Assembly: GCF_000195755.1 (NCBI RefSeq)
Contig: NC_002937.3
Span: 1,770,001 to 1,802,000 of the forward strand
Length of the DNA stretch: 32,000 nucleotides
Source of the DNA: Nitratidesulfovibrio vulgaris str. Hildenborough
Lineage (GTDB): Bacteria > Desulfobacterota > Desulfovibrionia > Desulfovibrionales > Desulfovibrionaceae
Direction of reading: 5' to 3'
Shown: positions 879-21,855 of the stretch, piece by piece
Layout: each line of letters opens with the position of its first letter
Numbering within the stretch: position 1 is the first letter of the stretch
Translations under genes and position numbers: made by a program
Notes under the pieces: generated by a model
Databases searched by the model: none
Told to the model about the DNA's origin: nothing
The model's input: the letters and a program-made list of their open reading frames with translations, nothing else

Positions 879-1088
879 CTATTCGGCGCAGTCCACACAC
901 AGCCCCACACCCGGCAAAGCCTTTAGCCTCGCCTCGGGCAGGGGTTCCCCACACTCGGCGCAGCAGGGTACGCCGTCGATGATATCAGGTGATGGCCCAG
1001 ACCATGTTGCCCGTCCCGCCGCAGCGCTGATGGCGGCCTCACGGTCTTTGGCTTCGTAGTCCGAGGCTTGGTCGAAGATGTCTGCCAT
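879..1088 (-). CDS. TraR/DksA-family C4 zinc-finger protein (phage type)
   Basis: 69 aa ending ...CCAECGEPLPEARLKALPGVGLCVDCAE. This is the CxxC-x17-CxxC pattern with the IP-x-x-R-x-x-A-x-P core typical of phage TraR-like proteins. Confidence 0.8.
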   Translation of the reverse strand: MADIFDQASDYEAKDREAAISAAAGRATWSGPSPDIIDGVPCCAECGEPLPEARLKALPGVGLCVDCAE

Positions 1089-1103
1089 ACCGCTGCCCTC
1101 CCC

Positions 1104-1613
1104 CTACACCGGATAGCTCACGACCACGGCATCCAGCACCTCGACGGTAGTCGCGGCTTCAACCATCGCTTCAAGCTCTGCCCTGCGCGTGGCCAGCTTC
1201 TGCCGGGCATATTCAAGCCCGGTGAGGTCGGTCGCAGCGAGCAACGCGGCCTCCACGGCCACCGTGGTGGGGGTGGGGTCGGAGATGGCGACCACTCCAG
1301 CAAGGGCCGCATCGTGCCCTGCCCGGATGGCAGCCAGCTTCGCAGCCTTGGCCTGTTCCAGCGTCAGGGGCGGGGGCGGTGCATCGGCAGCGGCACGGGC
1401 CGACTCCCACGCGGCGAGGGCTGGCACCACCAGTGCGTCGTACTCGGCTTGGGTCATCGGAGTGTTCGGCGTGCCGTCGCTGTGTTCCACCCATCCGGTG
1501 AGGCCGTCCCACTGGATGGCGTGTACGTGTCCCGGCAGGGTGAGGCTCACGTTGAGGCCCCGTCCGTCCACGATGACGAGGCTGTCGGCGGGAACGATGG
1601 TCACTCTAGGCAT
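1104..1613 (-). CDS. hypothetical phage protein (possible tail-fibre accessory/chaperone)
   Basis: 169-aa ORF co-oriented with the tail fibre and overlapping the upstream gene by 8 nt. The Ala-rich central segment LTLEQAKAAKLAAIRAGHDAAL resembles domains seen in tail-fibre-associated proteins. The function call is weak. Confidence 0.55.
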   Translation of the reverse strand: MPRVTIVPADSLVIVDGRGLNVSLTLPGHVHAIQWDGLTGWVEHSDGTPNTPMTQAEYDALVVPALAAWESARAAADAPPPPLTLEQAKAAKLAAIRAGHDAALAGVVAISDPTPTTVAVEAALLAATDLTGLEYARQKLATRRAELEAMVEAATTVEVLDAVVVSYPV

Positions 1614-1974
1614 GGGGCCCTCCTATGGAGTTCTTGAACGCGCCAGCCTTCACGCTGGCGGCAATGTCGTCCTGCTCAATCTGCGCCTTTGTGCGTGACG
1701 CGAGTGCAACGATTGTTCCCAGCCGAGCCGCTGTTTCCTCTGTCGTGCGCACCATCTCATTGCGAAGAGACTCGGTAGCCGCCGCGCCCTGCCGCACCTG
1801 CTGTGCGTTCTCGATGAGCAGCACGGGCAGCCACGCCAGCGAGCATCCCCACTCGTCGATATCCGCCCCGGTCTGCGGGTGCGTGCCGCGCAACTGTGTG
1901 AACAGGGCGCAGTCAAGTTGTCTGCATTCAGCAAAGCCCGCGAAGGGGCACAGGTTCTTGCGTTGCATCTGCAT
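1606..1974 (-). CDS. hypothetical phage protein
   Basis: 122-aa ORF packed tightly between the tail fibre stop (1977) and the next gene. Protein-like composition (CPFAGFAEC...DEWGCSLAWLPVLLIENAQQ). No family recognised. Confidence 0.55.
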   Translation of the reverse strand: MQMQRKNLCPFAGFAECRQLDCALFTQLRGTHPQTGADIDEWGCSLAWLPVLLIENAQQVRQGAAATESLRNEMVRTTEETAARLGTIVALASRTKAQIEQDDIAASVKAGAFKNSIGGPHA

Positions 1975-1976
1975 GG

Positions 1977-3051
1977 CTAGGCCTTTGTTGCGATGATGAT
2001 GTCGACGTAGGCGAGGCGCAGGTCGAGGCCGTGGGTGTGTGAACCGTTGCTACCCTGCGTGCCGGTGACGAGTTGCGTCGAGTTGGTGGCCCCGGTGCCG
2101 TTGTCGGTGGTGCGGATGACCTGAATGCCGCCGCCTGCGTTACCGGCCCTCCTCACATAGGTGCCTACAGAGTCGATGACCTCGTGTGCGTGCCCCGGCA
2201 TCTGCGAGGCGACCAGCGTCGTCGAGTCGACCATCGTACGGCTAAAAATTGAAGAGAAACCCGTGATGCCACCGCTCCCCACAGCCCCGGAAACCACGCG
2301 CAACGCCCTGTCGTTCATGGTCGTGTCCTTCGTCCATCCCGTGGGGGCCGTCGACTGCTGAAACAGCAGGCGAGTTCCGGCAGGAAAGGGCTTCACGCCT
2401 TCCAGCCCGTACCCGCCGCCCACCGATACAACCACGGCCTTGCCTGCGGCCTCGGCGACAGGGATGGGCAGGATGCGGCTTGCCGCCTTGTCCCGTGCTG
2501 CCTCCGCCCCCCGCCTTCGCCGCTTCCGCCCCAGCCCGCGCAACCTCTGCGCCATCCTTGGCGACACCTGCCGCCGTCGCGCTTCCTGCCGCAGCCCCGA
2601 CAGACGCCTGCGCTACGGCCAGCGCGGAGTTGATGTCATCCATTATCTGGTCGGGCCGCGTGGTCGAATCCATGCGCACCTGCACGCAGCGGCCCACGGC
2701 CTCGCGCAGTTGCTGCGCCATGACGGTGAGCCTGTCCATGCCACGTTCCACCACGCGCACGTCGAACAGCCCCGTATTGGTGTACCTGTCGAGTTGCTCG
2801 AAGGGCACGTCGCGCCAGATGAGCAGCTTCGCACCCGCCGCCAGCGGCGCGGTAAGGGTCAGCGTGCCGCCCACGTCCACGCCCTGCTGCAGGGTGTAGT
2901 CCGTGCCGTTGGCAAGGTCGGTCGCCACACCGTCGACGATGCGCTGTGCCCGCACCCACGCCGGGTCGTGGAACACCCACCGCACCGGAAACGCCGTCTG
3001 CGCCCCGTCGCCGCTGTAGGTATGCGGCGTGTAGTCTCGTGATACGCTCAT
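1977..3051 (-). pseudogene. T7-type tail fibre protein with a collar-like C-terminal domain, split into two frames at a C6/G6 homopolymer
   Basis: The N-terminal frame (3051 down to about 2510) reads MSVSRDYTPHTYSGDGAQTAFPVRW...DYTL...LLIWRDVPFEQLDRYTNTGLFDVRVVERGMDRL. This matches the T7 gp17 N-terminal pattern Y..DG....F.IPF...DY...I.RR......D. The C-terminal frame (about 2506 down to 1977) reads AEAARDKAAS...PTGWTKD...QMPGHAHEV...GSHTHGLDL...IIATKA, which is tail-collar-like. The frames meet at CCCCCC 2507-2512. An AGGAGG RBS precedes ATG 3051. Confidence 0.7.
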
Positions 3052-3085
3052 GTTGCCTCCTGCTTACGGGCCTGTGTCGGCCCGC

Positions 3086-3626
3086 CTATCTGGAAAGACT
3101 CTTCGGACGAGGAGCGATGGGCGACAGGAAGTTGCCCTCGCCTGTTTCGAACTGCTCGTAGCCCCTGATGAAATCGCGCGTCACACGCGAGGCCGGCACA
3201 TGCACCCACAGCGAGATGATGTCGGCCACAGACCCTGCAAGGCGAGCCTGTGCCTGTGCGTCATCAAGGCCGTATTCGTGTGCGGTGCGCACCGCCTTGG
3301 CGAAGCCCAGCGTCACCTTCGAGACAGGCTCGAACACGGTACGGAAAGCCGCGTGTGGTGAACTCGTTACCGAAATCCCCACCAAGCACAGAGGCCGCCA
3401 CCTCCATGCCCATGTCACCCACGACAGGCGCCAAGGGCGAAAGCGAGAACGCAACGCACCGCCGTAATGCGGACGGCATCTCACCTTCAGCAAAGACATG
3501 GCCTCGCATAGGCAATGTAGCGATGGATTGTGTAGCGGATGACATCGCGCCCGTGCTCTGTGATAACGCATGTATCCAGCTACAGAACAAAATGGACACA
3601 CCTTGCGCCATACCCTTGGGCATCAA
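3086..3626 (-). pseudogene. phage structural gene remnant: 5'-truncated at the island edge, with an internal frame break
   Basis: Two overlapping minus-strand ORFs, 3264-3626 and 3086-3601. Each is protein-like in only one half (...SPLAPVVGDMGMEVAASVLGGDFGNEF, then ...AAFRTVFEPVSKVTLGFAKAVRTAHEYGLDDAQAQARLAG...). It lies directly upstream of the tail fibre. The total span is 541 nt, which is 3n+1. Confidence 0.35.
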
Positions 3627-4324
3627 GCTTTGCGCGCTCGCACAACGTTATGGGATACCAACCAAATACAGTATTACAATAAACATATCCGGCCTACTAT
3701 TTCAAAATTCAAGATATACATTGCATCATGCCACAACTTGACGCCTATATAAAACGATACAAGTCTATTTTTGCAAGACACAAAAATACTTTTGTTCATA
3801 GCAATATGTAAAAATACAGACATAATGGTGCCAAAGAAAACAAGGTACGAAAGAAAAGTTTCGATCTTTGATAATAATTGATCACGCAAAGAAAGAGTAT
3901 ATATCAGTGTAAAACCAGCAATGCTGCTTCTGGAAAGATGCAAAATCGCATGAGCAAAGATAAGACAACGGTGTTGTGTTGCGTGAAGAATAAGACGGTA
4001 ACGACGATGAGGAATATGTTGACGCTATCAACAGCCCAAACCCAGGGGGGGCATTGAGAAAGCCGTATCAGTCGCGTTGGCCTATTCCAAACCTACGCTT
4101 CATAGAGTATGTGATATTCCAAATGCAGTGGCCGACTAGGCAGAAGACCACCGGGCGACGGCAGAATAGATAGCCTCTGTTTTCATCTGTCATTGAGCGG
4201 AGAATGCGAAATGTCTTACGCGTGCAAGCAGGTTCCGTTGCCCTGTGTCTGATGCCCCCACTACACAACATCAGCAACCGAGACAGACCAACTGCGCGGA
4301 TGATTGGCAAAAAGGGGTAGCTGC

Positions 4325-5572
4325 ATGGAAATAACCATCCACCGTGGAACGCAAGAAATCGGCGGAAGCTGTGTGCAGCTTTCTTCAGGGGGCCGATCAA
4401 TATTGATTGATGCTGGCTCCCCCCTCAGAGAAAGCCAATGCGAGGTCAAGCTTTCTGATATCAGCTTTGAAGCAGTGTTGGTGAGCCACCCGCATCAGGA
4501 TCATTACGGACTGATCGACAGCCTTGATCCTGCCACGCCGGTCTATATTGGCGAAATCGCCTGTAAGATGATTGCCGCAGCCAGAACCTTTACGTCCAGA
4601 CCTCCCCTTGCAAACAACTTCAGGCATTTCAAGGCATGGACCCAGTTTGAAATAGGCCCTTTCCGTATCACTCCGTATCTGATGGATCATTCATCTACCG
4701 ACGCCTTTGGCTTTCTGGTCGAAGCCGAAGGTAAAAGACTTTTCTACAGCGGAGATTTCAGAGCGCATGGCAGCAAAGAAAAAACATTCGATGCCCTTCT
4801 TGCAAGACCCCCTCAAAAGGTCGATGTATTGCTGATGGAAGGCACCATGCTGGGCCGTGAAAGTGCAGCATACAGGCGGGAAAAAAATATTGAAAACGAA
4901 ATGCTAGAGGTACTGAGCGAAGAAAAAGGACCAGCTTTTCTGATTTGTTCAGGACAACATGTTGATCGTTTGTGTGCCGCCTTCAGAGCATGTAGAAAAG
5001 CTGGGCGAATCTATGTCGTTGACATCTATACAGCCTGGATTCTGCAAATTCTATCCGAGCACTTCGACACGACACCTCACTTCCGCCTGAAAGACATCCG
5101 CGTATTGGCGCATGGCCCCACCGCAAAAAACCACTACATGGCCATCAAGAACAACGCAAAGTTCACAAGATTCATACGGGAAATCTACAAAACCGATACG
5201 GCCATTAAAGAGTCTCAAATCGCCGAATCCCCAAGCCGCTATTTCATCAAAAATACTCGGATTGATCATTTGCTGAATGCGCTAAATCCACCACAGTGCA
5301 GTCTCATATATTCACAATGGAGTGGATATCTTGAAAGCCAATACAACCCTCAAAGCTGGAAACTGACGAATCTCAGAGATGACCCGAGAGTCTCATTCCA
5401 TGAAATCCACACCAGTGGACATGCTTTCCGGCAAGACCTTAAGCGTTATGCCAACGCAATTAACCCAAAGCTTCTGGTGCCGATTCATACAGAAAAAAAA
5501 CAAGACTATGCAAAGCACTTCCAGCCCATTCAGGTGAAGGCCGTTGCAGACGGCGAGTTGTTTGAAGTTTGA
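4325..5572 (+). CDS. metallo-beta-lactamase fold nuclease of the beta-CASP family
   Basis: MEITIHRGTQEIGGSCVQL start with AAGGGG 9 nt upstream of ATG 4325; the track start at 4304 is a TTG. MBL motif HPHQDH at 4487-4504, then MDHS and YSGDF. Beta-CASP-like motifs follow: A (LLMEGT), B (HTSGHA), C (LVPIHTE). Confidence 0.85.
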   Translation: MEITIHRGTQEIGGSCVQLSSGGRSILIDAGSPLRESQCEVKLSDISFEAVLVSHPHQDHYGLIDSLDPATPVYIGEIACKMIAAARTFTSRPPLANNFRHFKAWTQFEIGPFRITPYLMDHSSTDAFGFLVEAEGKRLFYSGDFRAHGSKEKTFDALLARPPQKVDVLLMEGTMLGRESAAYRREKNIENEMLEVLSEEKGPAFLICSGQHVDRLCAAFRACRKAGRIYVVDIYTAWILQILSEHFDTTPHFRLKDIRVLAHGPTAKNHYMAIKNNAKFTRFIREIYKTDTAIKESQIAESPSRYFIKNTRIDHLLNALNPPQCSLIYSQWSGYLESQYNPQSWKLTNLRDDPRVSFHEIHTSGHAFRQDLKRYANAINPKLLVPIHTEKKQDYAKHFQPIQVKAVADGELFEV

Positions 5573-5652
5573 AAAGTGCGTACAGCATAAGGCAAATTAG
5601 CATTTGCTACAACACTCTGCCCCATTCGCACAAATACTCAGGAGGTAGAAAG

Positions 5653-6639
5653 GTGTCCGATAACATGTTGCGCACATTCAAACGAGGAATACGCGATACG
5701 CAAACGCTCGAAGCTGCGAAATCCTTTTTCTGTTCCCCCTTGGGACAGCTCATACTCAATGGAAATTCAAACAACAGAAGCCCATTCCAAATCTGCATAA
5801 GAGACAACTACTTCAATGTTTATTGGAATGGCTGTTCCGTAATGAAGTATCGCCCAAAGGCAACACATAATGAATTTACAATTCATCACAAGTATATTCA
5901 TGGAAAAGAAGGGAAAAAAGACTATCTGAATATGCTTCCTCAAAGAGATACAAACGTCTGCGACCTGAAAACGAATACAGATTATGCCTGGTCTTTCAGA
6001 AAAAACATTGTCGAACCAGCAATAAATGGATGCCATGTACCCGTGCTCAGCGAGTATGTAGACAGCAGCAAAGGCAACATGCAAAAAGAGAAAGCCTTGC
6101 TCAAGAGGTATATTGAAAGCTCAGAAAGCTTTCTTTTGATAGACCTTGAAGTAGCTTTTTCACGGCTGAACGAAAACAATAAACACGCTGCCCACCGCAT
6201 CGACATGGCAGAGATTGACTATGATGACAATAATACTCCTACCTTGCGCCTTGTCGAGGTCAAGGCATCCAGCGACAACAGACTAAGAGCGCAACTCAAG
6301 AGCGCGCTAATGGAACACAGCGATAAAATCATGTATCAAATGAATATATATCAAAACTTTTTAAACAATGAGATTGCTGGCATTACTGAAAGCTACAGGC
6401 TCATTGCATCTAACATGCTTGAACTGGGCTTCGATCGGCACATGAAAGGCACGGCTGGCAAGTCGGCAACTGAGGTTCTTCAAGATTTCGCAGCAAGAGG
6501 CATTGTCGACCCACAACCGCACCTGCTTGTGTTGTATTCCGAGCAAAACAGATACGTTGAAGACGATCATTTCCGGCTACTGCAAGACGTAATCGCTCAA
6601 ATGTATCCACGGCTAAGGCTTGTTCGTGTTGCTGGATAG
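5653..6639 (+). CDS. hypothetical protein with a PD-(D/E)xK-like nuclease core in the C-terminal half
   Basis: AGGAGG lies 7 nt upstream of GTG 5653; the track start at 5569 is a TTG that overlaps the upstream stop. The putative catalytic pattern is HRIDMAEID...LRLVEVK (D 6202-6204, E 6256-6258, K 6262-6264). No family recognised. The gene is very AT-rich. Confidence 0.7.
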   Translation: MSDNMLRTFKRGIRDTQTLEAAKSFFCSPLGQLILNGNSNNRSPFQICIRDNYFNVYWNGCSVMKYRPKATHNEFTIHHKYIHGKEGKKDYLNMLPQRDTNVCDLKTNTDYAWSFRKNIVEPAINGCHVPVLSEYVDSSKGNMQKEKALLKRYIESSESFLLIDLEVAFSRLNENNKHAAHRIDMAEIDYDDNNTPTLRLVEVKASSDNRLRAQLKSALMEHSDKIMYQMNIYQNFLNNEIAGITESYRLIASNMLELGFDRHMKGTAGKSATEVLQDFAARGIVDPQPHLLVLYSEQNRYVEDDHFRLLQDVIAQMYPRLRLVRVAG

Positions 6640-6730
6640 CAGTTGCTACGCGTTCGCCCTACCCCGCACGGCTAGGCTTGCCGAGACAACAGCGCGACAC
6701 ACGGTTGTGGGACGTTGCATCGTAAAGTCC

Positions 6731-6758
6731 TTGACACGCACGCTCACCGGTATATGAC
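6731..6758 (+). promoter_or_regulatory. candidate orphan sigma70-like promoter
   Basis: TTGACA at 6731-6736, a 16-nt spacer, then TATGAC at 6753-6758. No credible CDS lies downstream before the terminator at 6894. Confidence 0.3.
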
Positions 6759-6893
6759 AGCCAACGAGTGTTACCTGTCGCTGTCAAGTCGCGAGCACAT
6801 CTCGACAACCACGCCCCAAATCTCGAAGCCCTTTATGCGCTACTGGTTTCTTTCCAGCTTGGCAGCATGGCGGGTGCGCAGGGCACCCCGAAC

Positions 6894-6920
6894 AAAGCCG
6901 CTTTCAAAGCGGCTTTTTTT
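6894..6920 (+). terminator. rho-independent terminator between convergent genes (possibly bidirectional)
   Basis: AAAGCCGCTT / AAGCGGCTTT hairpin (6894-6916) followed by a T7 run. An A-rich stretch upstream allows some function on the other strand. Confidence 0.65.
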
Positions 6921-6997
6921 GTCTATACCTCCAGAGGCTCCATATTTATCATCACATACGCAACATGGCAGGATACTTGAATATAATGCCGCCCCAG

Positions 6998-7741
6998 CTA
7001 TTCATTCAGCAGCAGCTCCGACATACCGTCCAGCTTCGCCTTGACGGACTTCCAGTCCGGCATCCGGTCCGCCAGCAGGCGGTAGAAGCGGGGGCTGTGG
7101 TTGTGCTCCTGAAGGTGGCACAGCTCATGCGTCAGCACGTAATCGATACACTCTCGCGGCGCTTTGATAAGGTGCGGATTTATGGAGAGTGTGCCGTTTG
7201 GTGAGCAGCTTCCCCATTGCTTTTTCATGGTCAGCAGTTGCCACGGTGGCACATCATCCTTCCACGGGGTTCTCTCCACAATGGCTTCCAGACGCTGCGT
7301 AAAGTATTCCTTGGCGCGTTGCCTATACCAGTCCTGCAAGAGGCTTCTGACGCGTTCCGGTAAGCTGTCTTCCGTGCTTACTTCCAGCCTTCCGCGATAG
7401 AGCCGCACCTGCGCCTTTTGCCCCTGTGTCTTGATGACTTTGAGCTGGTGGCGGCGGCCTTGATAGAAGTAGCTTTCGCCGCTCACGTATTCGCGTGGCA
7501 GTACGTACCTGCGAAGCTCCCGCGCGCGGAGCATGTGGTCCAGAACCCATCTGGCGCGTTTCTGCACGGCCTCTTTTATTTGCACGAGGTCGGCGTCCTG
7601 CGGCGCATCGACCTGAACGGAACCGTCCGGATGCACATGGATGGCGACTTTCGCCTTCCGCCCCGGCACGTGACACACTTGATAGCGAATGCGTTCATCG
7701 CCATAGGTGAGTGTTTGCATGATTGTCTTATCTGTTTCCAT
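6998..7741 (-). CDS. M48-family / DUF45 (YgjP-like) zinc metallohydrolase
   Basis: The HELCHLQEHNHSPRFY motif (HExxH followed by NHS..FW-like) is typical of the DUF45 proteins found beside type I hsdR. The start is uncertain: ATG 7741 overlaps the hsdR 3' end, ATG 7720 lies 7 nt after the hsdR stop, and the track start at 7801 is unlikely. Confidence 0.8.
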   Translation of the reverse strand: METDKTIMQTLTYGDERIRYQVCHVPGRKAKVAIHVHPDGSVQVDAPQDADLVQIKEAVQKRARWVLDHMLRARELRRYVLPREYVSGESYFYQGRRHQLKVIKTQGQKAQVRLYRGRLEVSTEDSLPERVRSLLQDWYRQRAKEYFTQRLEAIVERTPWKDDVPPWQLLTMKKQWGSCSPNGTLSINPHLIKAPRECIDYVLTHELCHLQEHNHSPRFYRLLADRMPDWKSVKAKLDGMSELLLNE

Positions 7742-10700
7742 GGGCCAGACGCACTCTGGTAATCTGAATAACGTGTTCGATGACATCCTTTGCTTTTTCA
7801 AGCCCGATGAGCTTGAACAGACGCGGCAGGATGCCCTTGTGAATGGTGGATTCCATCGCCTGCGGACTTAGTGAGTGCTCTACAACGGCGGTGCCGACGA
7901 TGGAGTCGATGGCCTTGGCTTCCTCAATGAGCTTCTTTTCTTCATCCGGCGGGATGGCTTTGAAGTGGTCTTCGCCCAGCACCAGCCGGAATGTGCCGTA
8001 GTACGCCTTGGCAGTCTCGCTGCCATCAAGCTCGTCCGGTATGCCTGACACGGCGCGGTTGTTCAGCTGGTCCTCGAATTCCTTGAAAAGGGCGTATTGC
8101 TTGAAGGGATGTTCGAACATCTTTTCGGCTTGCGAAATGGCGTCCTTCAGCAGTTCGGAAAAGACCTTCTGGGCATACGGGTCGTCGCTGAGTTCCTGCT
8201 CGATGGTCTTTCGGACGCGTGTGCGGATGATGTCCGTCTCGTTACGCGTCTTCTCCTTTGACCAGTCTTCCGGCTTTTCCTTGCCGATATCGTCCACCAG
8301 CACAACGCCCTCTGGGTCTTCGATGGATTCTCCGACCACGTGCTTGTCCACGAGTCGGCGTATCTGCTCCTCGTAGGCGCTGTAGTCAACCGTTTCCTGT
8401 GCGTCCTGACGCGCTATCTTGCGCAGGTTCGTGAAGAATCGCAGATCGCTTTTGTACTTGGCGATGTCCTTTTCGCTGAAGCTGCCATCCTCAAAGAACG
8501 AGCGTGACGAAAGCGCCACCTTGAGACACAGGCCGAACTCCGTGAGCGCCTGGTAGAAGTCCTCTCGCACCTTCTGGCGCAGGTCGATGCTGGTTCCGTC
8601 GTCATCCTCCGTGTACTGCGGCATGAGGATTTGTCGGTACTGCTCAAGGTCCTGCCTGTTCTTGACGTCCCTGAATATTCCCCACAGGCGTTTGTGCTGC
8701 TCCGGCAGGCGTTTGTATTCGGTGCCGACCTGATGATACAGCCCCTCGATGTCGTCCACGTCAAAGCCGCTTTGCGTGCGTTCCTGAAGGTCCTGATATT
8801 CCTTGAGTGTCGTATCCAGTTCCTTGAGGATGCCGCGATAGTCGATGAGCAGGCCGTATTCCTTGGCCTCGTGCAGGCGGTTCACGCGTGCGATTGCCTG
8901 AAGCAGGTTGTGCTCTTTCAGCGGCTTGTCGATGTACAGAACCGTGTTCCTCGGTTCGTCAAAGCCCGTCAGCAGTTTGTCCACTACGATAAGGATGTCC
9001 ACGCCGTCGTCGGTGGCAAAGTCCTCGATGACGCGTTGCTCGTATTGCTTGTACTGTTCGGCGCTGGCGCTCTTGCCCACGGTCTTCTCGGCCCACTGCT
9101 GCACCTCCGGCAAAGCGGATTCGTCCACGTCTGCGTGGCCTTCGCGAGTGTCCGGCGGCGAGATGACCACGGCACTTGTTACCAGTCCTGTGGCATCGAG
9201 ATGCTTCTTGTAGCGGACTGCGGAGAGCTTGGAATCTGCGGCGAGTTGGCCCTTGAGTCCCATGCCGAGGGTTTTGATGTGGTCCGAGAAATGGGTGGCA
9301 ATGTCCCACGCGATGAGTTCAATGCGGTTCTCGGAGCCGTACACCGCGCCCTTGTTGGCGAATTTCTTTTTGAGGTCGGTCTTCTGCTCTTCGGTCAGCC
9401 GCGCCGTGATCTTGTCGAACCAGTTGTCAATGGCGGCTTCGTTCACGGCCAGTTCAGGGCGGCGCTCTTCGTAGAGCAGTGGCGTGACCGTTCCATCCTC
9501 CACGGCGCGCTGCATGGTGTAGGCGTGAATGATGGGACCGAACTTGTTCTGCGTCTTGTCGTCCTTGAGAAGCGGCGTTCCGGTAAAGGCGATGTACGCC
9601 GCATTGGGCAGCGCCTTGCGCATACGCTCGTGGGTTTCACCGCCGTGGCTGCGGTGGCCCTCGTCTACCAGCACGATGATCTTGTCGCTGGGGTTGTAGC
9701 ACTCCGGCAGCTTGGACGCTGTGTTGAACTTGTCGATGATGGAAAAGATGATGCGGTCATCGCCCTTGCCGATGCGCTGGGCGAGGTCACGACCGGACCC
9801 CGCTCTTGCCCGTTCGCCTTCCTTCTTGGTGGCAACGGCAGAGCCGAACGCGCCACCCGTGAGGAACGTTCTGGAGAGCTGTTTTTCAAGGTCAACGCGG
9901 TCCGTGACGATGATGACGCGGCAGTCCCTGAGGTCCGGTTCCAGCAGAAGCGCCTTGCTAAGGAAGACCATGGTGAAGGACTTGCCGGAACCTGTGGTGT
10001 GCCAGATAACGCCGCCCTCGCGGCTTCCGGCCTTGTCCAGCCGCTTCACGCGCTCCAGCATGGCTCTGATGCCGAATGCCTGCTGATACCGCGCCACAAT
10101 CTTGCCGACGCGCTTATCGAAGAGAATGTAATACTGCACCAGCTTCAGCAGGCGGTCCTTTCGCAATAGGCTGACAAGCAGCTTGTCCTGCTGTGTGGGC
10201 AGAACGTCGCCGGACCACAGCGATTCAAAGTAGTTCCGCATGGCCTTGGGGCGGTCCTGAAAAAGCGCGTCCTTGGCATCCGCTGAAAGCGGCGTGTTCT
10301 TGATGGTGTGGAAGGTGACGTCGTCGAAGATTTCCTCGCGCCACGTGGCCCAGAACTTCTTGGGCGTCTTGGTGGTGGCGTAGCGTCCTTCGGTGTTGCT
10401 GATGGCCATGAGCAGTTGCGCATAGCAGAAGAGGTGCGGAATTTCGTCCTTCTTCTGATTGCGGATGGACTGGCTGACGCCTTCCTCCAGCATGGACTTG
10501 TTCGGATTGCCGGATTCAGGCCGCTTTGCCTCGATGACCACAAAAGGGATGCCGTTGACGAAGCACACAATGTCAGGGATGCGCCTATGCGTGCCAGCCG
10601 AAGACAGCACGTCCATCTCTTCGGTGACGTGGAACAGGTTGTTTTCGGGGTGCTCCCAGTCGATGATGGGGATGGTCGGCTGAACGGGCTTGCCGTCAAT

Positions 10701-11027
10701 GAATTCCTTGACCGTGATGCCGAGGGTCAGCTTGTCGTAGATGCGCTCGTTGGCGGTGAGTAGCCCCTCGTGCAGCCCCGGCGATGACAGTTCGCGCACA
10801 ATATGCTCGATGGCATTGGGCGAAAGCGCGTGCCCCCTGCCGTCCCATTCAAAGCGCCGTGCCTGGAGTGAACGGATGAGTTCATCCTTCAGCAAAACCT
10901 CACGGTTCGTGCCGCGCTTGGTCAGGCACTGCGAAGGCGATATATACGTCCAGCCGAGATTCATGAGAACCTGCAAGGCCGGAATCTTGGCGCTGTATTC
11001 TTCCTTGGTTTCTGGTAGGTGGTGCAT
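7728..11027 (-). CDS. hsdR: type I restriction enzyme R subunit
   Basis: 1099 aa. N-terminal PD-(D/E)xK region (PDIVCFVNGIPFVVIEAKRP), helicase motif I (TTGSGKS), DEAH-type motif (LVDEGHRSH) and motif VI-like (LLQAIARVNR). Confidence 0.95.
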   Translation of the reverse strand: MHHLPETKEEYSAKIPALQVLMNLGWTYISPSQCLTKRGTNREVLLKDELIRSLQARRFEWDGRGHALSPNAIEHIVRELSSPGLHEGLLTANERIYDKLTLGITVKEFIDGKPVQPTIPIIDWEHPENNLFHVTEEMDVLSSAGTHRRIPDIVCFVNGIPFVVIEAKRPESGNPNKSMLEEGVSQSIRNQKKDEIPHLFCYAQLLMAISNTEGRYATTKTPKKFWATWREEIFDDVTFHTIKNTPLSADAKDALFQDRPKAMRNYFESLWSGDVLPTQQDKLLVSLLRKDRLLKLVQYYILFDKRVGKIVARYQQAFGIRAMLERVKRLDKAGSREGGVIWHTTGSGKSFTMVFLSKALLLEPDLRDCRVIIVTDRVDLEKQLSRTFLTGGAFGSAVATKKEGERARAGSGRDLAQRIGKGDDRIIFSIIDKFNTASKLPECYNPSDKIIVLVDEGHRSHGGETHERMRKALPNAAYIAFTGTPLLKDDKTQNKFGPIIHAYTMQRAVEDGTVTPLLYEERRPELAVNEAAIDNWFDKITARLTEEQKTDLKKKFANKGAVYGSENRIELIAWDIATHFSDHIKTLGMGLKGQLAADSKLSAVRYKKHLDATGLVTSAVVISPPDTREGHADVDESALPEVQQWAEKTVGKSASAEQYKQYEQRVIEDFATDDGVDILIVVDKLLTGFDEPRNTVLYIDKPLKEHNLLQAIARVNRLHEAKEYGLLIDYRGILKELDTTLKEYQDLQERTQSGFDVDDIEGLYHQVGTEYKRLPEQHKRLWGIFRDVKNRQDLEQYRQILMPQYTEDDDGTSIDLRQKVREDFYQALTEFGLCLKVALSSRSFFEDGSFSEKDIAKYKSDLRFFTNLRKIARQDAQETVDYSAYEEQIRRLVDKHVVGESIEDPEGVVLVDDIGKEKPEDWSKEKTRNETDIIRTRVRKTIEQELSDDPYAQKVFSELLKDAISQAEKMFEHPFKQYALFKEFEDQLNNRAVSGIPDELDGSETAKAYYGTFRLVLGEDHFKAIPPDEEKKLIEEAKAIDSIVGTAVVEHSLSPQAMESTIHKGILPRLFKLIGLEKAKDVIEHVIQITRVRLAHGNR

Positions 11028-11205
11028 GATACTCTTCTAATGGGAGTCGCCTTGAAATCGAGGGCGTTTTCGCATAAGTCGCGACGACTTGTTGGCCCCT
11101 TGCGCCTGCAACGACTCCCGTTGGCAGGCTGGCTACAAAGCACGGTTTGATGTTGCAGCATCGAGCCGTGTTTTTCTTTGTGCCCTCAACTTGGTTTGTC
11201 TGCCA

Positions 11206-11433
11206 CTAACCTTTCGGTGGGTGGGGATCATTGCCGTGGCTGTCAGATTGGCGAATCTGTCCGTTTGGACGATGAATCTGAAGCTCGGTCCCTTGGTTCC
11301 GGCTGATCTCCCGTGCGGTGTCGATAAGCCCGCTTTGTGTATCCCCTCTGTGGGAAGCGCGCTGGTCGCCATCACGTTTGATCTGCCAACCACCGTCTGG
11401 ATGTGGCATTACGCGGTGAGTGTCCCTGCTCAT
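11206..11433 (-). CDS. DUF2188-family small protein
   Basis: MSRDTHRVMPHPDGGWQIKRDG..RASH..DTQSGLIDTAREISRNQGTELQIHRPNGQIRQSDSHGNDPHPPKG matches my recollection of the DUF2188 pattern (V.P...GW.vk..g..ra...f.t...Ai..ar.iA......El.IH...G.I......ygnDp.PpkG). Alternative starts exist at 11439 and 11442. Confidence 0.7.
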   Translation of the reverse strand: MSRDTHRVMPHPDGGWQIKRDGDQRASHRGDTQSGLIDTAREISRNQGTELQIHRPNGQIRQSDSHGNDPHPPKG

Positions 11434-11459
11434 GGGCATCACCTCCTCTGCCGCTGTAT

Positions 11460-12710
11460 TTATCCGACCTGAGCCGGAGAGCGGTCATCATCAACCTTCA
11501 CGCGGCGTTTTCCTGTAAGGAGTTGTTGCATGAGGGCTTGTTTCTCTTTGACCAAAAAAATACGCGTTTTTAAATAGTCCTCTTGTTGCAAGTCGAAGGC
11601 TTCAATTCGTTGGGCTATTGCTATCTGTTCAAGGAGATTGGGGAGTTTAGTCCTAATCTTCATTATTTTTGATTTGTTAATAGTTTTTCCTTTTACGGCT
11701 TGGTCAACATCTTGAACTAAGTCAATGATGCCAAGATGGTGATAAAAGAAGTTTGTATCTATCTCATTTTTATGCTTAGGTATGAACGCACATATTGCTT
11801 CGTTTGTGTAGCATTGTGTTTTTGTTATGGCTCGTTTGCCGATAGTCAATTTAAAACTCATTATAACAGTAAGTCTTGGTATTAATTTAACGTTGCTGTT
11901 GGCTGCGCCAGCATCTGTAATATACTCATTTGTTTCTACGAGAAATTTATTTTTTAAATCAGAAATCGCTACCCATTTATTGCCACTTGCTTTTAGCTGG
12001 TCCCAGTAGGCGTTGTTTTTTCTGGATGGCGTGCCTCCAATGGTAACTTGAAATAGATCCCCCAGCCGAACCTCTTTCCACTCCCCACTGAACCCCGGCA
12101 GGCGTTTTTTGCCTGTCAGCAGTTGCTGCATGAGCGCCTTTTTCTGCTGTTTGCTGTTTTCTATCAGCTTGTCCACGGTCTCTATCGCCTTGTCCCACGT
12201 GGACAGGATGCGGGCGATTTTCTTTTGTTCGGTGAGAGGGGGGAGAAGGATAGGGAACTCTTTAATTTGCTGCGCGCTAATGTGCGGAACTGCTGTTTCT
12301 GTTTGAACACTTTTAACATACTGCTCAAATCGAAAAGAATTGAATATTTGCTTTAATAATTCTTGCACAAAGCTATCTTTAGATCTTAGGCGAGAGACAC
12401 GTTGAACTAAAAGACTTGGGCAGTCTTCGTGTCTGATTTCTGAGATTTTAAGACCACTGGAAACCCATGTGCGGTCCATTGCAATAACCAGATCGGCTGG
12501 TTTTAAAGCAAAACGTTCTACATTTATTTTGTCCTTATTGATCCATCTTTTGCATCCAGACCACCTAATATAACCCTGAGCAATGTTGTCGCCACGTAGA
12601 AGCCGAATCCCATCGGAATTGTCTGTGTATTCATGGCTCTTAAAAGGGTAACCAGATACTATTGAGATGTGATTGCCAATAATATCCGCCCTCCACCCCT
12701 CAGGCACCAT
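11460..12710 (-). CDS. hsdS: type I restriction-modification specificity subunit, full length with two TRDs
   Basis: VPEGWR... start at ATG 12710. The conserved central and C-terminal repeats are KALMQQLLTGKKRLPGF and QALMQQLLTGKRRVKV. The two variable TRDs are very AT-rich. Confidence 0.9.
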   Translation of the reverse strand: MVPEGWRADIIGNHISIVSGYPFKSHEYTDNSDGIRLLRGDNIAQGYIRWSGCKRWINKDKINVERFALKPADLVIAMDRTWVSSGLKISEIRHEDCPSLLVQRVSRLRSKDSFVQELLKQIFNSFRFEQYVKSVQTETAVPHISAQQIKEFPILLPPLTEQKKIARILSTWDKAIETVDKLIENSKQQKKALMQQLLTGKKRLPGFSGEWKEVRLGDLFQVTIGGTPSRKNNAYWDQLKASGNKWVAISDLKNKFLVETNEYITDAGAANSNVKLIPRLTVIMSFKLTIGKRAITKTQCYTNEAICAFIPKHKNEIDTNFFYHHLGIIDLVQDVDQAVKGKTINKSKIMKIRTKLPNLLEQIAIAQRIEAFDLQQEDYLKTRIFLVKEKQALMQQLLTGKRRVKVDDDRSPAQVG

Positions 12711-12759
12711 AACCCCACCCCAGCACAATATATTTCATCATCGTTGTATACCCTGTTCG

Positions 12760-12969
12760 CTACTTTCCGGCGCGTTTCAGCGCCTTCACCTGTCGGTCAA
12801 AGTCCGACTCGATGTGTTGCGTGCGATTGAATTTTTCGTATTCGGCATACGCCTTGGCTTCGGCCTGCTTGCGCGAGATGAAGCCGTAGCCTTTAAGAAT
12901 GCGGTATTCGGAGCGAGTTGTTTCCATAATGGAAAGAACTCCACAGGACGCATCCTGTTGAGCCTTCAC
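12760..12969 (-). CDS. small ORF resembling a detached RhuM-type C-terminal tail (55-69 aa)
   Basis: ...ISRKQAEAKAYAEYEKFNRTQHIESDFDRQVKALKRAGK. Possible starts are GTG 12969, 2 nt after the rhuM stop, or ATG 12927. The A..EYEKF...Q....SDFD pattern is what I recall at the C-terminus of RhuM-family proteins. Confidence 0.4.
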   Translation of the reverse strand: MKAQQDASCGVLSIMETTRSEYRILKGYGFISRKQAEAKAYAEYEKFNRTQHIESDFDRQVKALKRAGK

Positions 12970-12971
12970 CG

Positions 12972-13985
12972 CTAGTGTTCATTTTTGCTGACTTGCTTTT
13001 CCATTTCTTCCAACGCCTTAAGATCAGCGGCATCGGCCTCAAGCGCGTCCTGAGCTTTGCGTTTTTGGTCGAATGCAGAGAAGCGTTCGTGTGCGATAGT
13101 CTCCATCGCCTTGTGGCTCATCGCTCCTCGCCCATTAAGAAGAGGGCGTTCATTGAAGGTGATAAACCTGTCAACGTTAGCCCGCCAGTCTGTAAGCGTC
13201 AGGTGCTTACGCTGAGAAACGCGGTCTTCGGCATAGTCGAGGAACATGGTTACAAAGCGATTGAGGTGGGCAACCTCGTCTTGCGCAAGGTAGTTCTTGG
13301 CCACAATGACATCACTTTTGCGGACCACGTTCCCTTTCCAGCTTGTCAGGCCCATATTGGGCTGATCAGGATTTGCACGTTCCACGACGAGTTCGGCGGC
13401 TGTATGTCCTGTTACGGCATGAAGCAGCTTGTTTTGCACTTCTGCAAAGAAGCTCTGGGCGAGCTTTGGGTCGTCTTTGTAATCCTGAGACAGGGCAAAA
13501 AGGTCGCGTACCTTCTGATAGAACCGCTTCTCCGAAGCTCGAATGTCGCGTATGCGTTCAAGCAGTTCATCAAAGTAGTCCCACGCGGGTTCTTTCAGGC
13601 GTTCATCATTCATCACGAACCCTTTTACGAGGTATTCGCGAAGCGTTGTAGATGCCCACTGCCTGAACTCGACGCCGCGCGGAGAGCGCACCCGGTAGCC
13701 GACCGCGAGGATGGCATCAAGGTTGTAATGCTTGGTTTTGTAGTTTTTCCCATCGGCGGCAGTTATTAAGAAATCCTTAATAACTGAATCGGGAAGGAGT
13801 TCGCCTTCTTCGAATATCTTTTTCAGGTGCTGGTTGATATTGGCCGGAGTTACCTGAAACAACTCGGCCATTTCCTTTTGACTCAGCCACGCGGTGTCGC
13901 CGTGAATCTTGAGGTCGAGCTTGCTTCTGCCGTCTTCGGTTGAATACAGGACAATATCTGTTTTGGGCGCCAGTTCATCGCTCAC
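12972..13985 (-). CDS. rhuM: RhuM-family protein inserted between hsdM and hsdS
   Basis: 337 aa: ...LYSTEDGRSKLDLKIHGDTAWLSQKEMAELFQVTPANINQHLKKIFEEGEL...KHYNLDAILAVGYRVRSPRGVEFRQWASTTLREYLVKGFVMNDERLK. This is the canonical RhuM core as I recall it. The GTG start at 13985 lies 2 nt after the hsdM stop. Confidence 0.85.
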   Translation of the reverse strand: MSDELAPKTDIVLYSTEDGRSKLDLKIHGDTAWLSQKEMAELFQVTPANINQHLKKIFEEGELLPDSVIKDFLITAADGKNYKTKHYNLDAILAVGYRVRSPRGVEFRQWASTTLREYLVKGFVMNDERLKEPAWDYFDELLERIRDIRASEKRFYQKVRDLFALSQDYKDDPKLAQSFFAEVQNKLLHAVTGHTAAELVVERANPDQPNMGLTSWKGNVVRKSDVIVAKNYLAQDEVAHLNRFVTMFLDYAEDRVSQRKHLTLTDWRANVDRFITFNERPLLNGRGAMSHKAMETIAHERFSAFDQKRKAQDALEADAADLKALEEMEKQVSKNEH

Positions 13986-13987
13986 AG

Positions 13988-15508
13988 CTATTCCTCTCCG
14001 GTCAGGTAGCCCAGTTCCTTCAGGTAGCCTTCCATCTCCACTTCGAGCTTGGCGAGGTCTGCCTTCAGTTCCTTGCGCTCTTTCAGAACGGCCTCAAGGT
14101 CGATTTCTTCTTCTTCCTCGAAGGTATCCACGTAGCGGGGAATGTTCAGGTTGAAGTCGTTTTCGCGGATTTCCTCAAGAGTTGCGAGGTAGGCGTACTT
14201 GTCTACGCTTTCGCGTGCCTTGGCGGTATCCAGAACCTTCTGGATGTCTTCGTCACGAAGGAAGTTCTGGTTCTTGCCGTCCTGATACTCGCGCGAGGCG
14301 TCGATGAAGAGAACGTTGTTGTCCTTCTTGTTTTTGCGGAACACGAGGATGGCGGCGGGGATGCCCGTGCCGTAGAAGAGCTTTTCTGGCAGGCCGATGA
14401 CCATATCCAGCAGGTTTTCCTTGATGAGCTGCTTGCGGATTTCCCCTTCGGAGGATGCGCGGAACAGGACGCCATGCGGAACAACAACGCCCATGCGTCC
14501 GGTTCCTGGCTTCAGGGTCTCGATCATGTGCAGGATGAACGCGTAGTCGCCCTTGGTCTTGGGCGGAATGCCGCGACGAAAACGCCCGAAACGGTCGGCC
14601 TCTGCTGCCTCATGCCCCCACTTGTCCAGAGAAAAAGGCGGGTTGGCCACCACTATATCAAAGTGCTTGAGATGGTCGTCACCGTCCAGAAGTAGCGGGT
14701 TGCGCAGTGTGTCGCCCCATTCAATGCGGTGGTTGTCCTCGCTGTGCAGGAACATGTTCATCTTGGCGAGCGACCACGTCGAGCCGATGGCTTCCTGTCC
14801 GTACAGGGCATATTTCCGGTTGCCGAAGCGGTCCTTGATAAGCTTGGCGCATTTCATCAAAAGGGATGCGGAGCCGCACGCAGGGTCGCAGATTTCATCT
14901 CCTTCCTGCGGATTCACAAGCTCAGCGATGAGCTGGGAGACCTCGGGCGGAGTGTAGAATTCGCCAGCCTTCTTGCCGGAAGAGGCGGCAAAGTGCTTGA
15001 TGAGAAATTCGTAGGCGTTGCCGATGATATCCAGATTGCCGATGCGCGAGGGGCGCAGGTTCAATTCCGGCTTGCTGAAGTCCTCCAGCATGTGGCGCAG
15101 GATGTCGTTCTTCTGCTTGTCGTCACCGAGCTTCGTGGAGTTGAAGCTGATGTCCTGAAAGACGTCGTTCAGCTTGCCCATGTTGGCTTCTTCAATGGCG
15201 TGCAGAGCCTTGTCGATGCGCTCGCCGTTGCCTGCCTCGAAACGGCGTTCGTAGAGAGCATAGAAGCTGGCATCCTTTGGGAGCACAAAGCGCTCGTTCT
15301 TCATCATTTCTTCGATGAGTTCTGGCGCGTCGCCGTATTCGGCCTTGTAGGTGTCGTAATTGTCCTGCCATACGTCGCTGATGTATTTCAGGAAGAGCAT
15401 GGTCAGCACATAATCCTTATAGGCACTGGCATCGACCACGCCTCGGAACGTATCGCAGGCGTTCCATACGGCGTCGTTGACTTCTTTTTGACTTATGCGG
15501 GGTGTCAC
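13988..15508 (-). CDS. hsdM: type I restriction-modification N6-adenine DNA methyltransferase subunit
   Basis: 506 aa. N-terminal HsdM domain (LWNACDTFRG...YKDYVLTMLFLKYISD), AdoMet motif (ICDPACGSASLL) and catalytic NPPF (VVANPPFS). GTG start at 15508 with GAGG upstream. Confidence 0.95.
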   Translation of the reverse strand: MTPRISQKEVNDAVWNACDTFRGVVDASAYKDYVLTMLFLKYISDVWQDNYDTYKAEYGDAPELIEEMMKNERFVLPKDASFYALYERRFEAGNGERIDKALHAIEEANMGKLNDVFQDISFNSTKLGDDKQKNDILRHMLEDFSKPELNLRPSRIGNLDIIGNAYEFLIKHFAASSGKKAGEFYTPPEVSQLIAELVNPQEGDEICDPACGSASLLMKCAKLIKDRFGNRKYALYGQEAIGSTWSLAKMNMFLHSEDNHRIEWGDTLRNPLLLDGDDHLKHFDIVVANPPFSLDKWGHEAAEADRFGRFRRGIPPKTKGDYAFILHMIETLKPGTGRMGVVVPHGVLFRASSEGEIRKQLIKENLLDMVIGLPEKLFYGTGIPAAILVFRKNKKDNNVLFIDASREYQDGKNQNFLRDEDIQKVLDTAKARESVDKYAYLATLEEIRENDFNLNIPRYVDTFEEEEEIDLEAVLKERKELKADLAKLEVEMEGYLKELGYLTGEE

Positions 15509-15520
15509 GTTGTTACCTCA

Positions 15521-16099
15521 TTAAAGGGCTTTCCGGTTGAGTATCGTTGATGCCACGGCGCGAAGCTCCTGCTCGCGGTTGGCAATGAGTTTCCTGTAGG
15601 TCTCGGCTTCCTGCCGTGCTGCGGCGGCAAGGCGGACAACGGCGTGCTGTGTGCTTTTGGGCGGGATAACAAGCGGCAGGTCCGCGAGTACCGCCTTGCG
15701 GATGCTTCGCTGTACGGAACCTTCTGCCGACGCCTCGAAGTAGCGCTGTGCGGGAAGCTGATTCATCTGCCACGCCACAAACGCAGGCAGGACGCCTGCA
15801 CCGGGCGCGACTCTCAGAAGCAGAAAATGGGGAGAGATGACGGCGGGGAATGGGACGGAATCGAGGAGCACGGCAATGTTTCTGCTGCCACGGACCAGAA
15901 ACAGAATGTCCTGCGGCTGAAGCCAGTTCGGTTCACGCCGTCCGGAAAGCTCCGTCCGGACCAGCGAATGCCACGCAACGGCTCCGTCGTCCTCAATGTC
16001 CTTCATCTGGACAGCTCTGGCCGTGCCGTCGGCAACTTCCTCAATGCTTCCACGAAAGGGGTGGGCTGGGAGTATGTTGACAACATCGGACAGCTTCAT
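15521..16099 (-). CDS. hsdS: half-size type I specificity subunit (single TRD)
   Basis: MKLSDVVNILPAHPFRG... carries one TRD, then a conserved helical tail (...LPLVIPPKSTQHAVVRLAAAARQEAETYRKLIANREQELRAV). GGAG lies 8 nt upstream of ATG 16099; the track start at 16120 has no SD. The gene ends 12 nt before hsdM. Confidence 0.8.
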   Translation of the reverse strand: MKLSDVVNILPAHPFRGSIEEVADGTARAVQMKDIEDDGAVAWHSLVRTELSGRREPNWLQPQDILFLVRGSRNIAVLLDSVPFPAVISPHFLLLRVAPGAGVLPAFVAWQMNQLPAQRYFEASAEGSVQRSIRKAVLADLPLVIPPKSTQHAVVRLAAAARQEAETYRKLIANREQELRAVASTILNRKAL

Positions 16100-16127
16100 G
16101 ATTTTGTCTCCATTGGGCATGATGAAG

Positions 16128-18295: not shown

Positions 18296-18316
18296 GGTGC
18301 TCCCTCCTGGTTCTGA

Positions 18317-18952: not shown

Positions 18953-18960
18953 CTTGCCTC

Positions 18961-21814: not shown

Positions 21815-21855
21815 GTCTTCTCCGAAAGGGCCGGGTCACCCCGGCCCCGTTGCTG

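Follow-up and report, generated by a model that had tools for sequence, protein, structure and literature searches.

Background

What function could account for two adjacent, co-oriented genes that lie within the low-GC cargo of a prophage of Nitratidesulfovibrio vulgaris str. Hildenborough, the first specifying a metallo-beta-lactamase (MBL)-fold/beta-CASP hydrolase (termed here gene 1) and the second a protein of a previously undescribed family (gene 2)? This question is addressed here for a 32,000-nucleotide stretch of the forward strand of contig NC_002937.3 (positions 1,770,001 to 1,802,000; termed here the window, whose coordinates are counted from its first letter), in which the two genes occupy positions 4325 to 6639. 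A first-pass annotation, which was generated by a model from the sequence and its open reading frames (ORFs), had proposed that they form a self-contained nuclease pair acting in anti-phage or anti-plasmid defence. The analysis described here arrives at a similar answer: the two genes are read as one operon encoding a two-nuclease machine that is carried as prophage cargo and that, on balance, is most probably an innate anti-phage or anti-plasmid system, defence being the part of this reading that we infer.

Results

Linkage of the two genes

That these genes are members of a conserved, co-oriented pair is borne out both by recurrent adjacency and by natural fusions. In tblastn and hidden Markov model (HMM) scans of fetched loci (designated here by L numbers), about 20 independent loci have a gene 2 relative with an MBL gene as its neighbour; either gene may come first, and the pairing persists at identities as low as about 25%. 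The two adjoin one another in the window as well as in L001, L005, L007, L010, L012, L015, L016, L017, L024, L026, L029, L035, L036 and L038; in L018 the adjacent MBL match is partial, in L037 the MBL gene is about 1.8 kb from the gene 2 relative and on the opposite strand, and in L027 and L039 the gene 2 relatives are accompanied by MBL remnants. L031-L033, L036 and three viral contigs (L043, L044 and L049) have gene 2 ahead of the MBL gene, and in this reverse order the stop codon of the one often overlaps the start codon of the other. Moreover, P0184 (624 residues) and P0160 (492 residues), both of which are truncated by their contigs, are single polypeptides spanning both proteins, with the MBL C-terminus running directly into the gene 2 N-terminus. 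Such 'Rosetta-stone' fusions argue for a physical complex, and linkage across phyla, in both orders and with occasional fusion, indicates that the two proteins act together, probably as such a complex. In the window itself both ORFs are intact and their catalytic residues are conserved.

The two partners have not diverged at the same rate. Identities to the window proteins (MBL/gene 2, in percent) run 80/68, 71/53, 61/44, 50/39 and 45/31, and in L010 and L012 the MBL proteins are 70% and 64% identical to that of the window while the gene 2 partner is recognisable by HMM only; this gene 2 subfamily still has the IRDGYxNIYY and D...ExK motifs. The faster divergence of gene 2 in most pairs fits a role in recognition.

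Two viral contigs carry members of the MBL clade that are translationally coupled to other upstream partners, one of 210 residues in L045 (5372-6004; GEPD...IEVE) and one, different again, of 271 residues in L048 (915-1730; VDLV...LVELK), which suggests that PD-(D/E)xK-like partners are exchanged. A gene 2 homologue of 307 residues that stands, in L007-L009 (9339-10262), beside an MBL gene whose product is 80% identical to that of the window diverges at its C-terminal end after residue ~280; it adjoins a DDE transposase gene and could have suffered a frameshift or be in decay.

Gene 1: an MBL/beta-CASP enzyme

Gene 1 had been credited with a full MBL/beta-CASP motif set, and this is indeed what it contains: HPHQDH lies exactly at 4487-4504, and YSGDF, LLMEGT, HTSGHA and LVPIHTE are all found. 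MBL motifs 1-4 correspond to D29, H55-x-H57-x-D59-H60, H122 and D144, and beta-CASP motifs A, B and C to E172 (LLMEGT), H362 (HTSGHA) and H388 (PIHTE), which together make the protein a member of both groups. Within an alignment of 29 family members, whose identity goes down to 35%, D29, H55, H57, D59, H60, H122, D144, E172, H362, H366 and H388 are invariant; the enzyme is under selection to remain active. Pfam matches point the same way (Lactamase_B_2 at 3e-15 and RMMBL at 5e-9, the latter with 36.4 bits against a cut-off of 21.6; Lactamase_B_2 and Lactamase_B also exceed their cut-offs). Hence the initial identification of a beta-CASP MBL nuclease holds, and the invariance of its motifs marks gene 1 as an MBL/beta-CASP phosphodiesterase whose catalytic residues are intact. 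(Some annotators give it as 389 residues; the 415-residue start is favoured because the N-terminal HRG..IGG is conserved.)

The closest solved structures, as found by searching PDB sequences, are Enterococcus faecalis EF2904 (2az4, a protein of unknown function), RNase J, TTHA0252 and CPSF73, and the alignments to RNase J and TTHA0252 cover both halves of gene 1. It is nonetheless no member of the families named for RNase J, aCPSF1, RNase Z or Cas14, its score with the NCBIfam models of each falling far short of the cut-off. RNase J proper was rejected on this ground (TIGR00649, 49.7 bits versus 400; NF047419, 49.9 versus 820) and on the ground of size, the chain having 415 residues versus about 550 for RNase J and lacking the RNase J C-terminal domain; aCPSF1 and RNase Z were rejected on their NCBIfam scores. 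The clade to which gene 1 belongs is large and its own, with more than 100 close cluster representatives among the matches listed and 4,596 MBL matches overall. Proteins identical to gene 1 and to gene 2 fall into 90%-identity clusters whose members include N. vulgaris proteins as well (AAS96177.1, WP_010938989.1 and UniProt Q72BD6 for the MBL protein; ADP86747.1 and WP_014524401.1, annotated 'hypothetical protein', for gene 2).

Gene 2: a candidate nuclease of an undescribed family

All nine close homologues of gene 2 start at the column of GTG 5653, which confirms the start initially proposed behind an AGGAGG; a mechanical start at TTG 5569 is not used, because the homologues align from the GTG. 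Counted from this codon, the residues numbered D212, E230 and K232 on the earlier track ORF are D184, E202 and K204, and the peptides quoted with them are found. A word-indexed search gave only 10 relatives, versus the 352 clusters (defined at 50% identity) that an exhaustive profile search recovers at E<=1e-3, nearly all of them 290-350 residues long. Gene 2 has no match above threshold in Pfam, NCBIfam, PADLOC v2.0.0 (2023) or PHROGs; 59 family members scanned singly against Pfam and PADLOC at E<=1 yielded scattered noise (HamA in 2 of the 59, Endo_dU in one and Hjc in one) and no family match; and PDB sequences gave no meaningful match either to the single protein or to the 59-member profile. 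Its AlphaFold model is a confident one and has two domains (predicted local distance difference test score, pLDDT, 86.5; predicted template modelling score, pTM, 0.87). Insofar as conservation and modelling can place it, gene 2 represents a family not described before, whose members have about 300-330 residues and join a novel N-terminal domain to a conserved nuclease-type core.

The N-terminal alpha/beta domain has F9, R11, R50, Y57 and G60 as its invariant residues in the family alignments (FxRG ... IRDxYxNxYxxG). This is the half that could not be placed at first sight, and after modelling, which for the domain alone gives a pLDDT of 86.8, it still has no significant neighbour in the PDB by Foldseek (best E=0.95). 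A likeness to frataxin/YdhG/YjbR-like proteins was set aside as non-significant (template modelling score 0.3-0.39, E>=1.4).

For the C-terminal half, where a D...ExK arrangement had been pointed out, the motif proves to be conserved and the core topology fits, but no search reaches significance. Among 59 and 39 family members, D184, E202, K204 and Q229 are conserved in at least 90%, and Y233 is invariant. DSSP applied to the model gives the core order alpha-beta-beta-beta-alpha-beta (helix 146-156; strands 161-172, 178-190 and 196-205; helix 226-258; strand 290-295), with D184 in strand 2, E202-x-K204 in strand 3 and Q229xxxY233 at the start of the long helix. An Asp in strand 2 together with ExK in strand 3 on the expected core is the PD-(D/E)xK motif and topology and, by these two features, the C-terminal part reads as PD-(D/E)xK/RecB-like. 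HamA is its sole Pfam hint (E=0.011 over residues 170-240; 16 bits versus a cut-off of 25). When the full model is compared with the PDB by Foldseek, Hachiman, Cas4/ACE1 and SSO0001 appear only at E=0.2-0.4; against BFVD the best match has E=0.011, and many of the named matches are PD-(D/E)xK, RecB, RecE or UL24 proteins. None of these fold searches (full model against PDB and BFVD; N-terminal domain against PDB) returned anything at E<0.01.

Distribution, accessory genes and neighbours

The pair is patchily distributed, occurring in Desulfovibrio, Shewanella, Desulfuromonadaceae, Nitrospirota, a candidate phyla radiation bacterium, Brevundimonas and Acidobacteria. Among 185,579 species-representative genomes, a scan finds only 5 loci; on viral contigs, a scan with gene 2 found none, and one with the MBL protein found three contigs carrying the pair.

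The term 'self-contained' suits the two-gene core of the window and does not suit many of the relatives, which have extra conserved genes; because the window is without these, its pair represents a minimal core. One such gene, present in many loci and absent from the window, encodes a conserved 123-125-residue protein with no Pfam or PHROG match, whose place varies: upstream, downstream or, in L024, between the two genes. Others encode a 155-residue protein and a HEAT-like protein of 87-181 residues, the latter lying, in several relatives, between the MBL gene and gene 2, where the window has a spacer of 80 bp only. (In L019 a remnant of the HEAT-like protein lies upstream of gene 2.) A winged helix-turn-helix (wHTH)-WYL-WCX regulator adjoins the pair in about six loci; none accompanies the window copy. 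WYL repressors of the CapW/BrxR type regulate immune operons and respond to single-stranded DNA (PMC11662680). Five loci, finally, have an IetA-like double-AAA+ ATPase of about 660-750 residues beside the WYL regulator and the pair (PADLOC IetA, up to 1.5e-34). These ATPases, beside which no IetS protease was seen, may belong to a more extensive form of the system.

The defence-gene context that was expected of such a system is present, in qualitative terms, beside relatives of the pair. McrBC adjoins it in Brevundimonas, and in L039 (4242-9168 and 13508-20258) a gene 2 relative with a decayed MBL gene lies between a RADAR-like pair and DISARM-like genes, its flanks comprising an adenosine-deaminase (702 residues)/882-residue pair and an SNF2 helicase with an MmeI-type methyltransferase. 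Elsewhere the neighbours include PIN-TPR-GreABC and T5orf172 (L001), NERD (L010) and many toxin-antitoxin (TA) pairs (L040). A comparison of 145 neighbour ORFs with PADLOC gave 141 matching models, WYL being matched by 6 ORFs and IetA by 4; further matches are to TRIP13-like, PDC-S48, DEDDh, DolB, PbeA, PsyrT, DrmA/D/MI and PDC-M26A/B models. The window pair, lying beside a type I restriction-modification (R-M) operon within prophage cargo, has a defence context of its own. Thus the generic traits of defence systems are found (a conserved operon, patchy and horizontal distribution, and carriage as mobile-element cargo), with enrichment near defence genes being qualitative.

The prophage and its cargo island

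The window comprises a prophage integrated beside tRNA-Arg(CCT) at 704-780 (Table 1), the structural genes of which (879-3545 and 16746-32000) are podovirus-like. The cargo island that holds the pair is not at a prophage end; rather, it splits the late structural block, separating the tail-fibre genes from the tail and internal-virion genes. Its GC content is lower than that of the host prophage, which indicates horizontal transfer. Neither convincing flanking repeats nor an integrase or transposase was found for the island (~3600-16500), and nucleotide searches of the island against plasmids and of the prophage against phages gave no match. The pair had been taken for the most AT-rich part of the island; this is not so, as its GC content is 0.43-0.47 versus 0.416 for the HsdS region at 11501-12500.

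The pair is convergent with the type I R-M operon, and the distance first estimated at about 360 bp is a gap of 359 bp (6639 to 6998). In that operon 74 nt at the 3' end of hsdR are shared with the YgjP-like (PF01863) gene, and genes for DUF2188 and RhuM proteins are embedded. The operon was considered as an accessory of the pair and rejected, given that the combination is confined to the window's own island (the window and L042) and was seen beside none of the relatives in other organisms. A hairpin and T-run do exist at 6894, where a terminator had been proposed, and probably terminate both the pair and the R-M operon; but such sites are no commoner in this region than in shuffled sequence, and for this reason the hairpin alone is weak evidence. 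No sigma-70 promoter was predicted upstream of gene 1, and no Rfam RNA exceeded threshold within 3000-7200.

Table 1. Features of the window, and of loci holding relatives of the pair, by position
Feature	Position	Strand	Details and basis
TraR/DksA zinc-finger protein	879-1088	-	prophage gene
Tail-fibre genes	1104-3051	-	PHROG matches
Prophage tail-fibre block	879-3545	-	PHROG matches
Low-GC cargo island, ~13 kb	~3600-16500 (bounds approximate)		GC 0.42-0.58 versus 0.64-0.70 for the prophage; composition profile
Gene 1, 415-residue MBL-fold/beta-CASP hydrolase	4325-5572	+	ATG start; ORF list and raw sequence, Pfam
Gene 1 catalytic codons, MBL part	D29 4409-4411; H55xH57xD59H60 4487-4504; H122 4688-4690; D144 4754-4756	+	
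Gene 1 catalytic codons, beta-CASP part	motif A E172 4838-4840; motif B H362 5408-5410; motif C H388 5486-5488	+	
AGGAGG ribosome-binding site of gene 2	5640-5645	+	7 nt upstream of the GTG
Gene 2	5653 (GTG)-6639 (stop 6637-6639)	+	328 residues
Gene 2 N-terminal alpha/beta domain, residues 1-~142	5653-6081	+	AlphaFold, conservation
Gene 2 C-terminal PD-(D/E)xK-like domain	6082-6639	+	motif conservation, AlphaFold secondary structure
Gene 2 motif codons	D184 6202-6204; E202 6256-6258; K204 6262-6264; Q229 6337-6339; Y233 6349-6351	+	
Terminator-like hairpin	6894-6926	+	10-bp stem and T-run; between the pair and the R-M operon
Convergent type I R-M operon	6998-15508	-	Pfam; gene calls of the identical island L042
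YgjP-like metallopeptidase	6998-7801	-	R-M operon
HsdR	7728-11027	-	R-M operon
DUF2188	11206-11442	-	R-M operon
HsdS	11460-12728	-	R-M operon
RhuM	12972-13985	-	R-M operon
HsdM	13988-15508	-	R-M operon
Tail and internal-virion proteins	16746-21054	-	PHROG matches
Tail tubular protein	21227-21814		PHROG matches
Portal/adaptor	24775-26427		PHROG matches
Terminase	27329-29113		PHROG matches
123-125-residue protein of relatives	L001 7804-8175; L005 5750-6142; L007 7606-7977; L010 7615-7989; L012 6235-6612; L028 691-1056		
HEAT-repeat-like protein of relatives	L001 9454-9987; L010 9257-9520; L012 9247-9783; L015 2188-2718		
IetA-like ATPase of relatives	L010 3650-5731; L012 1-141; L015 103-738; L027 5132-7375; L038 6138-8129		

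Discussion

A possible mechanism

A more specific proposal, which is put forward tentatively, is that the pair is an innate immune system not named before, with two nucleases acting as a complex: a PD-(D/E)xK enzyme that has a novel N-terminal sensor, and a beta-CASP enzyme dedicated to it. Gene 2 would recognise and nick the nucleic acid of the invader and the beta-CASP enzyme would degrade it from the 5'-phosphate end, with a CapW/BrxR-type WYL repressor and an IetA-like ATPase as optional components. Among beta-CASP enzymes, RNase J, SNM1 and Apollo combine endonuclease activity with a 5'->3' exonuclease activity that depends on a 5'-phosphate, and cleavage by PD-(D/E)xK enzymes yields 5'-phosphate ends. 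Under this proposal, gene 2 would serve as the recognition and initiating component, whose fast-evolving N-terminal domain, with its invariant Arg and Tyr, would bind a nucleic-acid feature or a ligand, and whose PD-(D/E)xK site would then make an endonucleolytic cut that leaves a 5'-phosphate. From this entry point the more conserved beta-CASP enzyme would degrade processively, a part suggested by the way in which RNase J and SNM1/Apollo work 5'->3' from a 5'-phosphate. The target could be the nucleic acid of the invader or, in an abortive-infection mode, that of the host. In many relatives a CapW/BrxR-type WYL repressor would control the operon and tune its expression, whereas the window copy lacks one.

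Weighing the alternatives

Several observations weigh against a defensive pair of this kind. As had been surmised, the pair corresponds to no named system: the PADLOC release scanned (v2.0.0, 2023) matches neither gene, and searches of the literature on beta-CASP and MBL proteins, WYL regulators, defence and the DVU locus tags found no description of the pair. The putative PD-(D/E)xK assignment of gene 2 comes without a significant profile or fold match. The neighbourhoods are defence-rich in a qualitative sense, judged against no formal background, and those of L007 and L037 are ordinary metabolic ones. Nor is the linkage universal, as the most distant gene 2 relatives, L040 and L041, are without an MBL gene, and the MBL relatives on viral contigs L045-L048 and L050 have other partners or none. 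The motif C His and the RMMBL domain of gene 1, moreover, hint at an RNA substrate, which would alter an endo-then-exo scheme framed for DNA, and the WYL regulators and the DEDDh, UDG, Ku and UvrD neighbours fit a DNA-damage or repair role equally well.

This last point leads to what is, though still unlikely, the most probable of the competing explanations, namely that the pair serves mobile elements as a module for repair, recombination or end processing that DNA damage induces. It would process DNA ends or structures in the manner of Artemis/SNM1, be controlled by single-stranded DNA through WYL proteins, and benefit the element or host repair instead of attacking invaders. The adjacent WYL-WCX regulators in about six loci belong to a class that senses single-stranded DNA or DNA damage (PMC11662680); the neighbours include RNase_T/DEDDh exonucleases, UDG, Ku and UvrD fragments, DUF2779 and YAcAr; and the QxxxY motif is typical of end-processing nucleases of the RecB/Cas4 type. 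A pair this rare and patchy, however, with 5 loci in the species-representative genomes, is not conserved by lineage; it is variable low-GC cargo beside R-M, McrBC, DISARM and RADAR-like genes, and its WYL regulators, which the window copy does without, share the CapW/BrxR architecture of immune operons. An RNA-processing or RNA-degrading pair, in which an RNase J-like enzyme and an RNA-binding or RNA-cleaving partner carry out house-keeping or RNA repair for the element, has a small probability. In beta-CASP enzymes motif C is His in RNase J and CPSF73, which act on RNA, and Val in SNM1 and Artemis, which act on DNA; an RNA substrate is thus possible for gene 1, because its motif C is His and an RMMBL 'RNA specificity' domain is present. 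Among named proteins it is RNase J and TTHA0252 that gene 1 resembles most, and 'Swiss-army-knife' RNA-repair domains are found in occasional neighbours (HAD_SAK_2 in L012, PTP-SAK in L038). Yet gene 1 reaches only 49.7 of the 400 bits required of RNase J and is without its C-terminal domain, and an accessory, patchy, island-borne distribution speaks against house-keeping; RNA targeting is, in any case, compatible with defence, and would then merge with the reading favoured here while changing the substrate.

An addiction or stabilisation module of the island or prophage, in which one nuclease is toxic, its partner restrains it and there is no specific anti-phage role, is about as doubtful. 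The tight two-gene linkage and the fusions would suit a toxin-antitoxin arrangement, as would the TA-rich location of L040, the decayed MBL genes beside intact gene 2 relatives in L027 and L039, and the IetA-like ATPase that accompanies some pairs, given that the original description of IetAS was of a TA system that stabilises plasmids (PMC13069673). Catalytic sites, however, are intact in both proteins across the family, unlike those of a typical antitoxin, and gene 2 persists where the MBL gene is degraded or absent, just as the MBL gene occurs without gene 2; because each thus occurs without an intact partner, neither protein can be an obligatory neutraliser of its partner. As many TA systems have a defensive role too, the two explanations are not mutually exclusive. 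Chance adjacency of unrelated genes, or of decayed ones, is refuted by some 20 independent loci, both gene orders, the fusions and intact ORFs with conserved catalytic residues, and has a negligible probability. An innate two-nuclease defence system remains the favoured reading.

If the pair is protective, it would add a family of about 350 clusters and an unrecognised fold to the bacterial immune repertoire, and would provide a case of a beta-CASP nuclease serving as a stand-alone innate effector. The window pair, being located beside a type I R-M operon, may constitute a second barrier to DNA uptake in N. vulgaris, which is a genetically tractable model. The fusions and the modular accessory genes (for WYL, HEAT-like, 123-residue and AAA+ proteins) offer handles on the mechanism.

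Comparison with known systems

Hachiman, which consists of the DUF1837 nuclease HamA and the helicase HamB, resembles the pair in having two genes that combine a PD-(D/E)xK nuclease (in the pair, a putative one) with a second enzyme; in addition, HamA is the only Pfam hint for the gene 2 core, and a Hachiman structure, 8zue_A, ranks high in the Foldseek list without reaching significance. The pair differs in having an MBL/beta-CASP enzyme in place of the helicase and in the unrelated N-terminal domain of gene 2, and it was rejected as Hachiman because HamA scores 16 bits versus a cut-off of 25 and is hit by 2 of 59 members, because no helicase is adjacent, and because the PADLOC HamA and HamB models have no match. 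Shedu (SduA, DUF4263) is similar in concept, in that a variable N-terminal sensing domain is joined to a C-terminal PD-(D/E)xK nuclease within defence islands; what sets the window clade of gene 2 apart is its tight linkage to another nuclease, an MBL enzyme. In Hachiman and Shedu a partner or an N-terminal sensor gates the PD-(D/E)xK nuclease, and the pair would work in a broadly similar way. Gene 2 was rejected as a Shedu protein, as none of the 59 members matches DUF4263 or SduA in Pfam or PADLOC at E<=1.

Gene 1 shares MBL motifs 1-4, beta-CASP motifs A, B and C (His) and the RMMBL domain with RNase J, TTHA0252, EF2904 (2az4) and CPSF73, and differs from RNase J, aCPSF1 and RNase Z in being a compact protein of 415 residues that forms its own clade, paired with PD-(D/E)xK-like partners. 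As regards immune systems, it is comparable to trypsin-MBL/HamMAB, 6A-MBL and Cas14, in each of which an MBL-fold nuclease (in Cas14, a beta-CASP one) is an immune effector. Trypsin-MBL/HamMAB and 6A-MBL use protease or ubiquitin-like partners, unlike the pair; they were rejected, there being no ORF for a trypsin-like protease or for E1, E2 or JAB proteins either in 3000-7000 or beside the relatives. Type VII CRISPR-Cas, to which Cas14 belongs, was likewise rejected: NF045584 scores 29.3 bits versus a cut-off of 800, and the window has no Cas5 or Cas7 gene and no CRISPR array, its only tandem repeat being two copies of 21 nt at 30819. To our knowledge, Cas14 is so far the only source of beta-CASP chemistry in immunity; hence, if the target of the pair is RNA, gene 1 would be without precedent, type VII CRISPR apart, as an RNase J-like beta-CASP effector of immunity. 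What would be new, then, is a nuclease-based innate defence assembled from a known fold and a new family, a proposal that comparative genomics supports and in which the function is what we infer.

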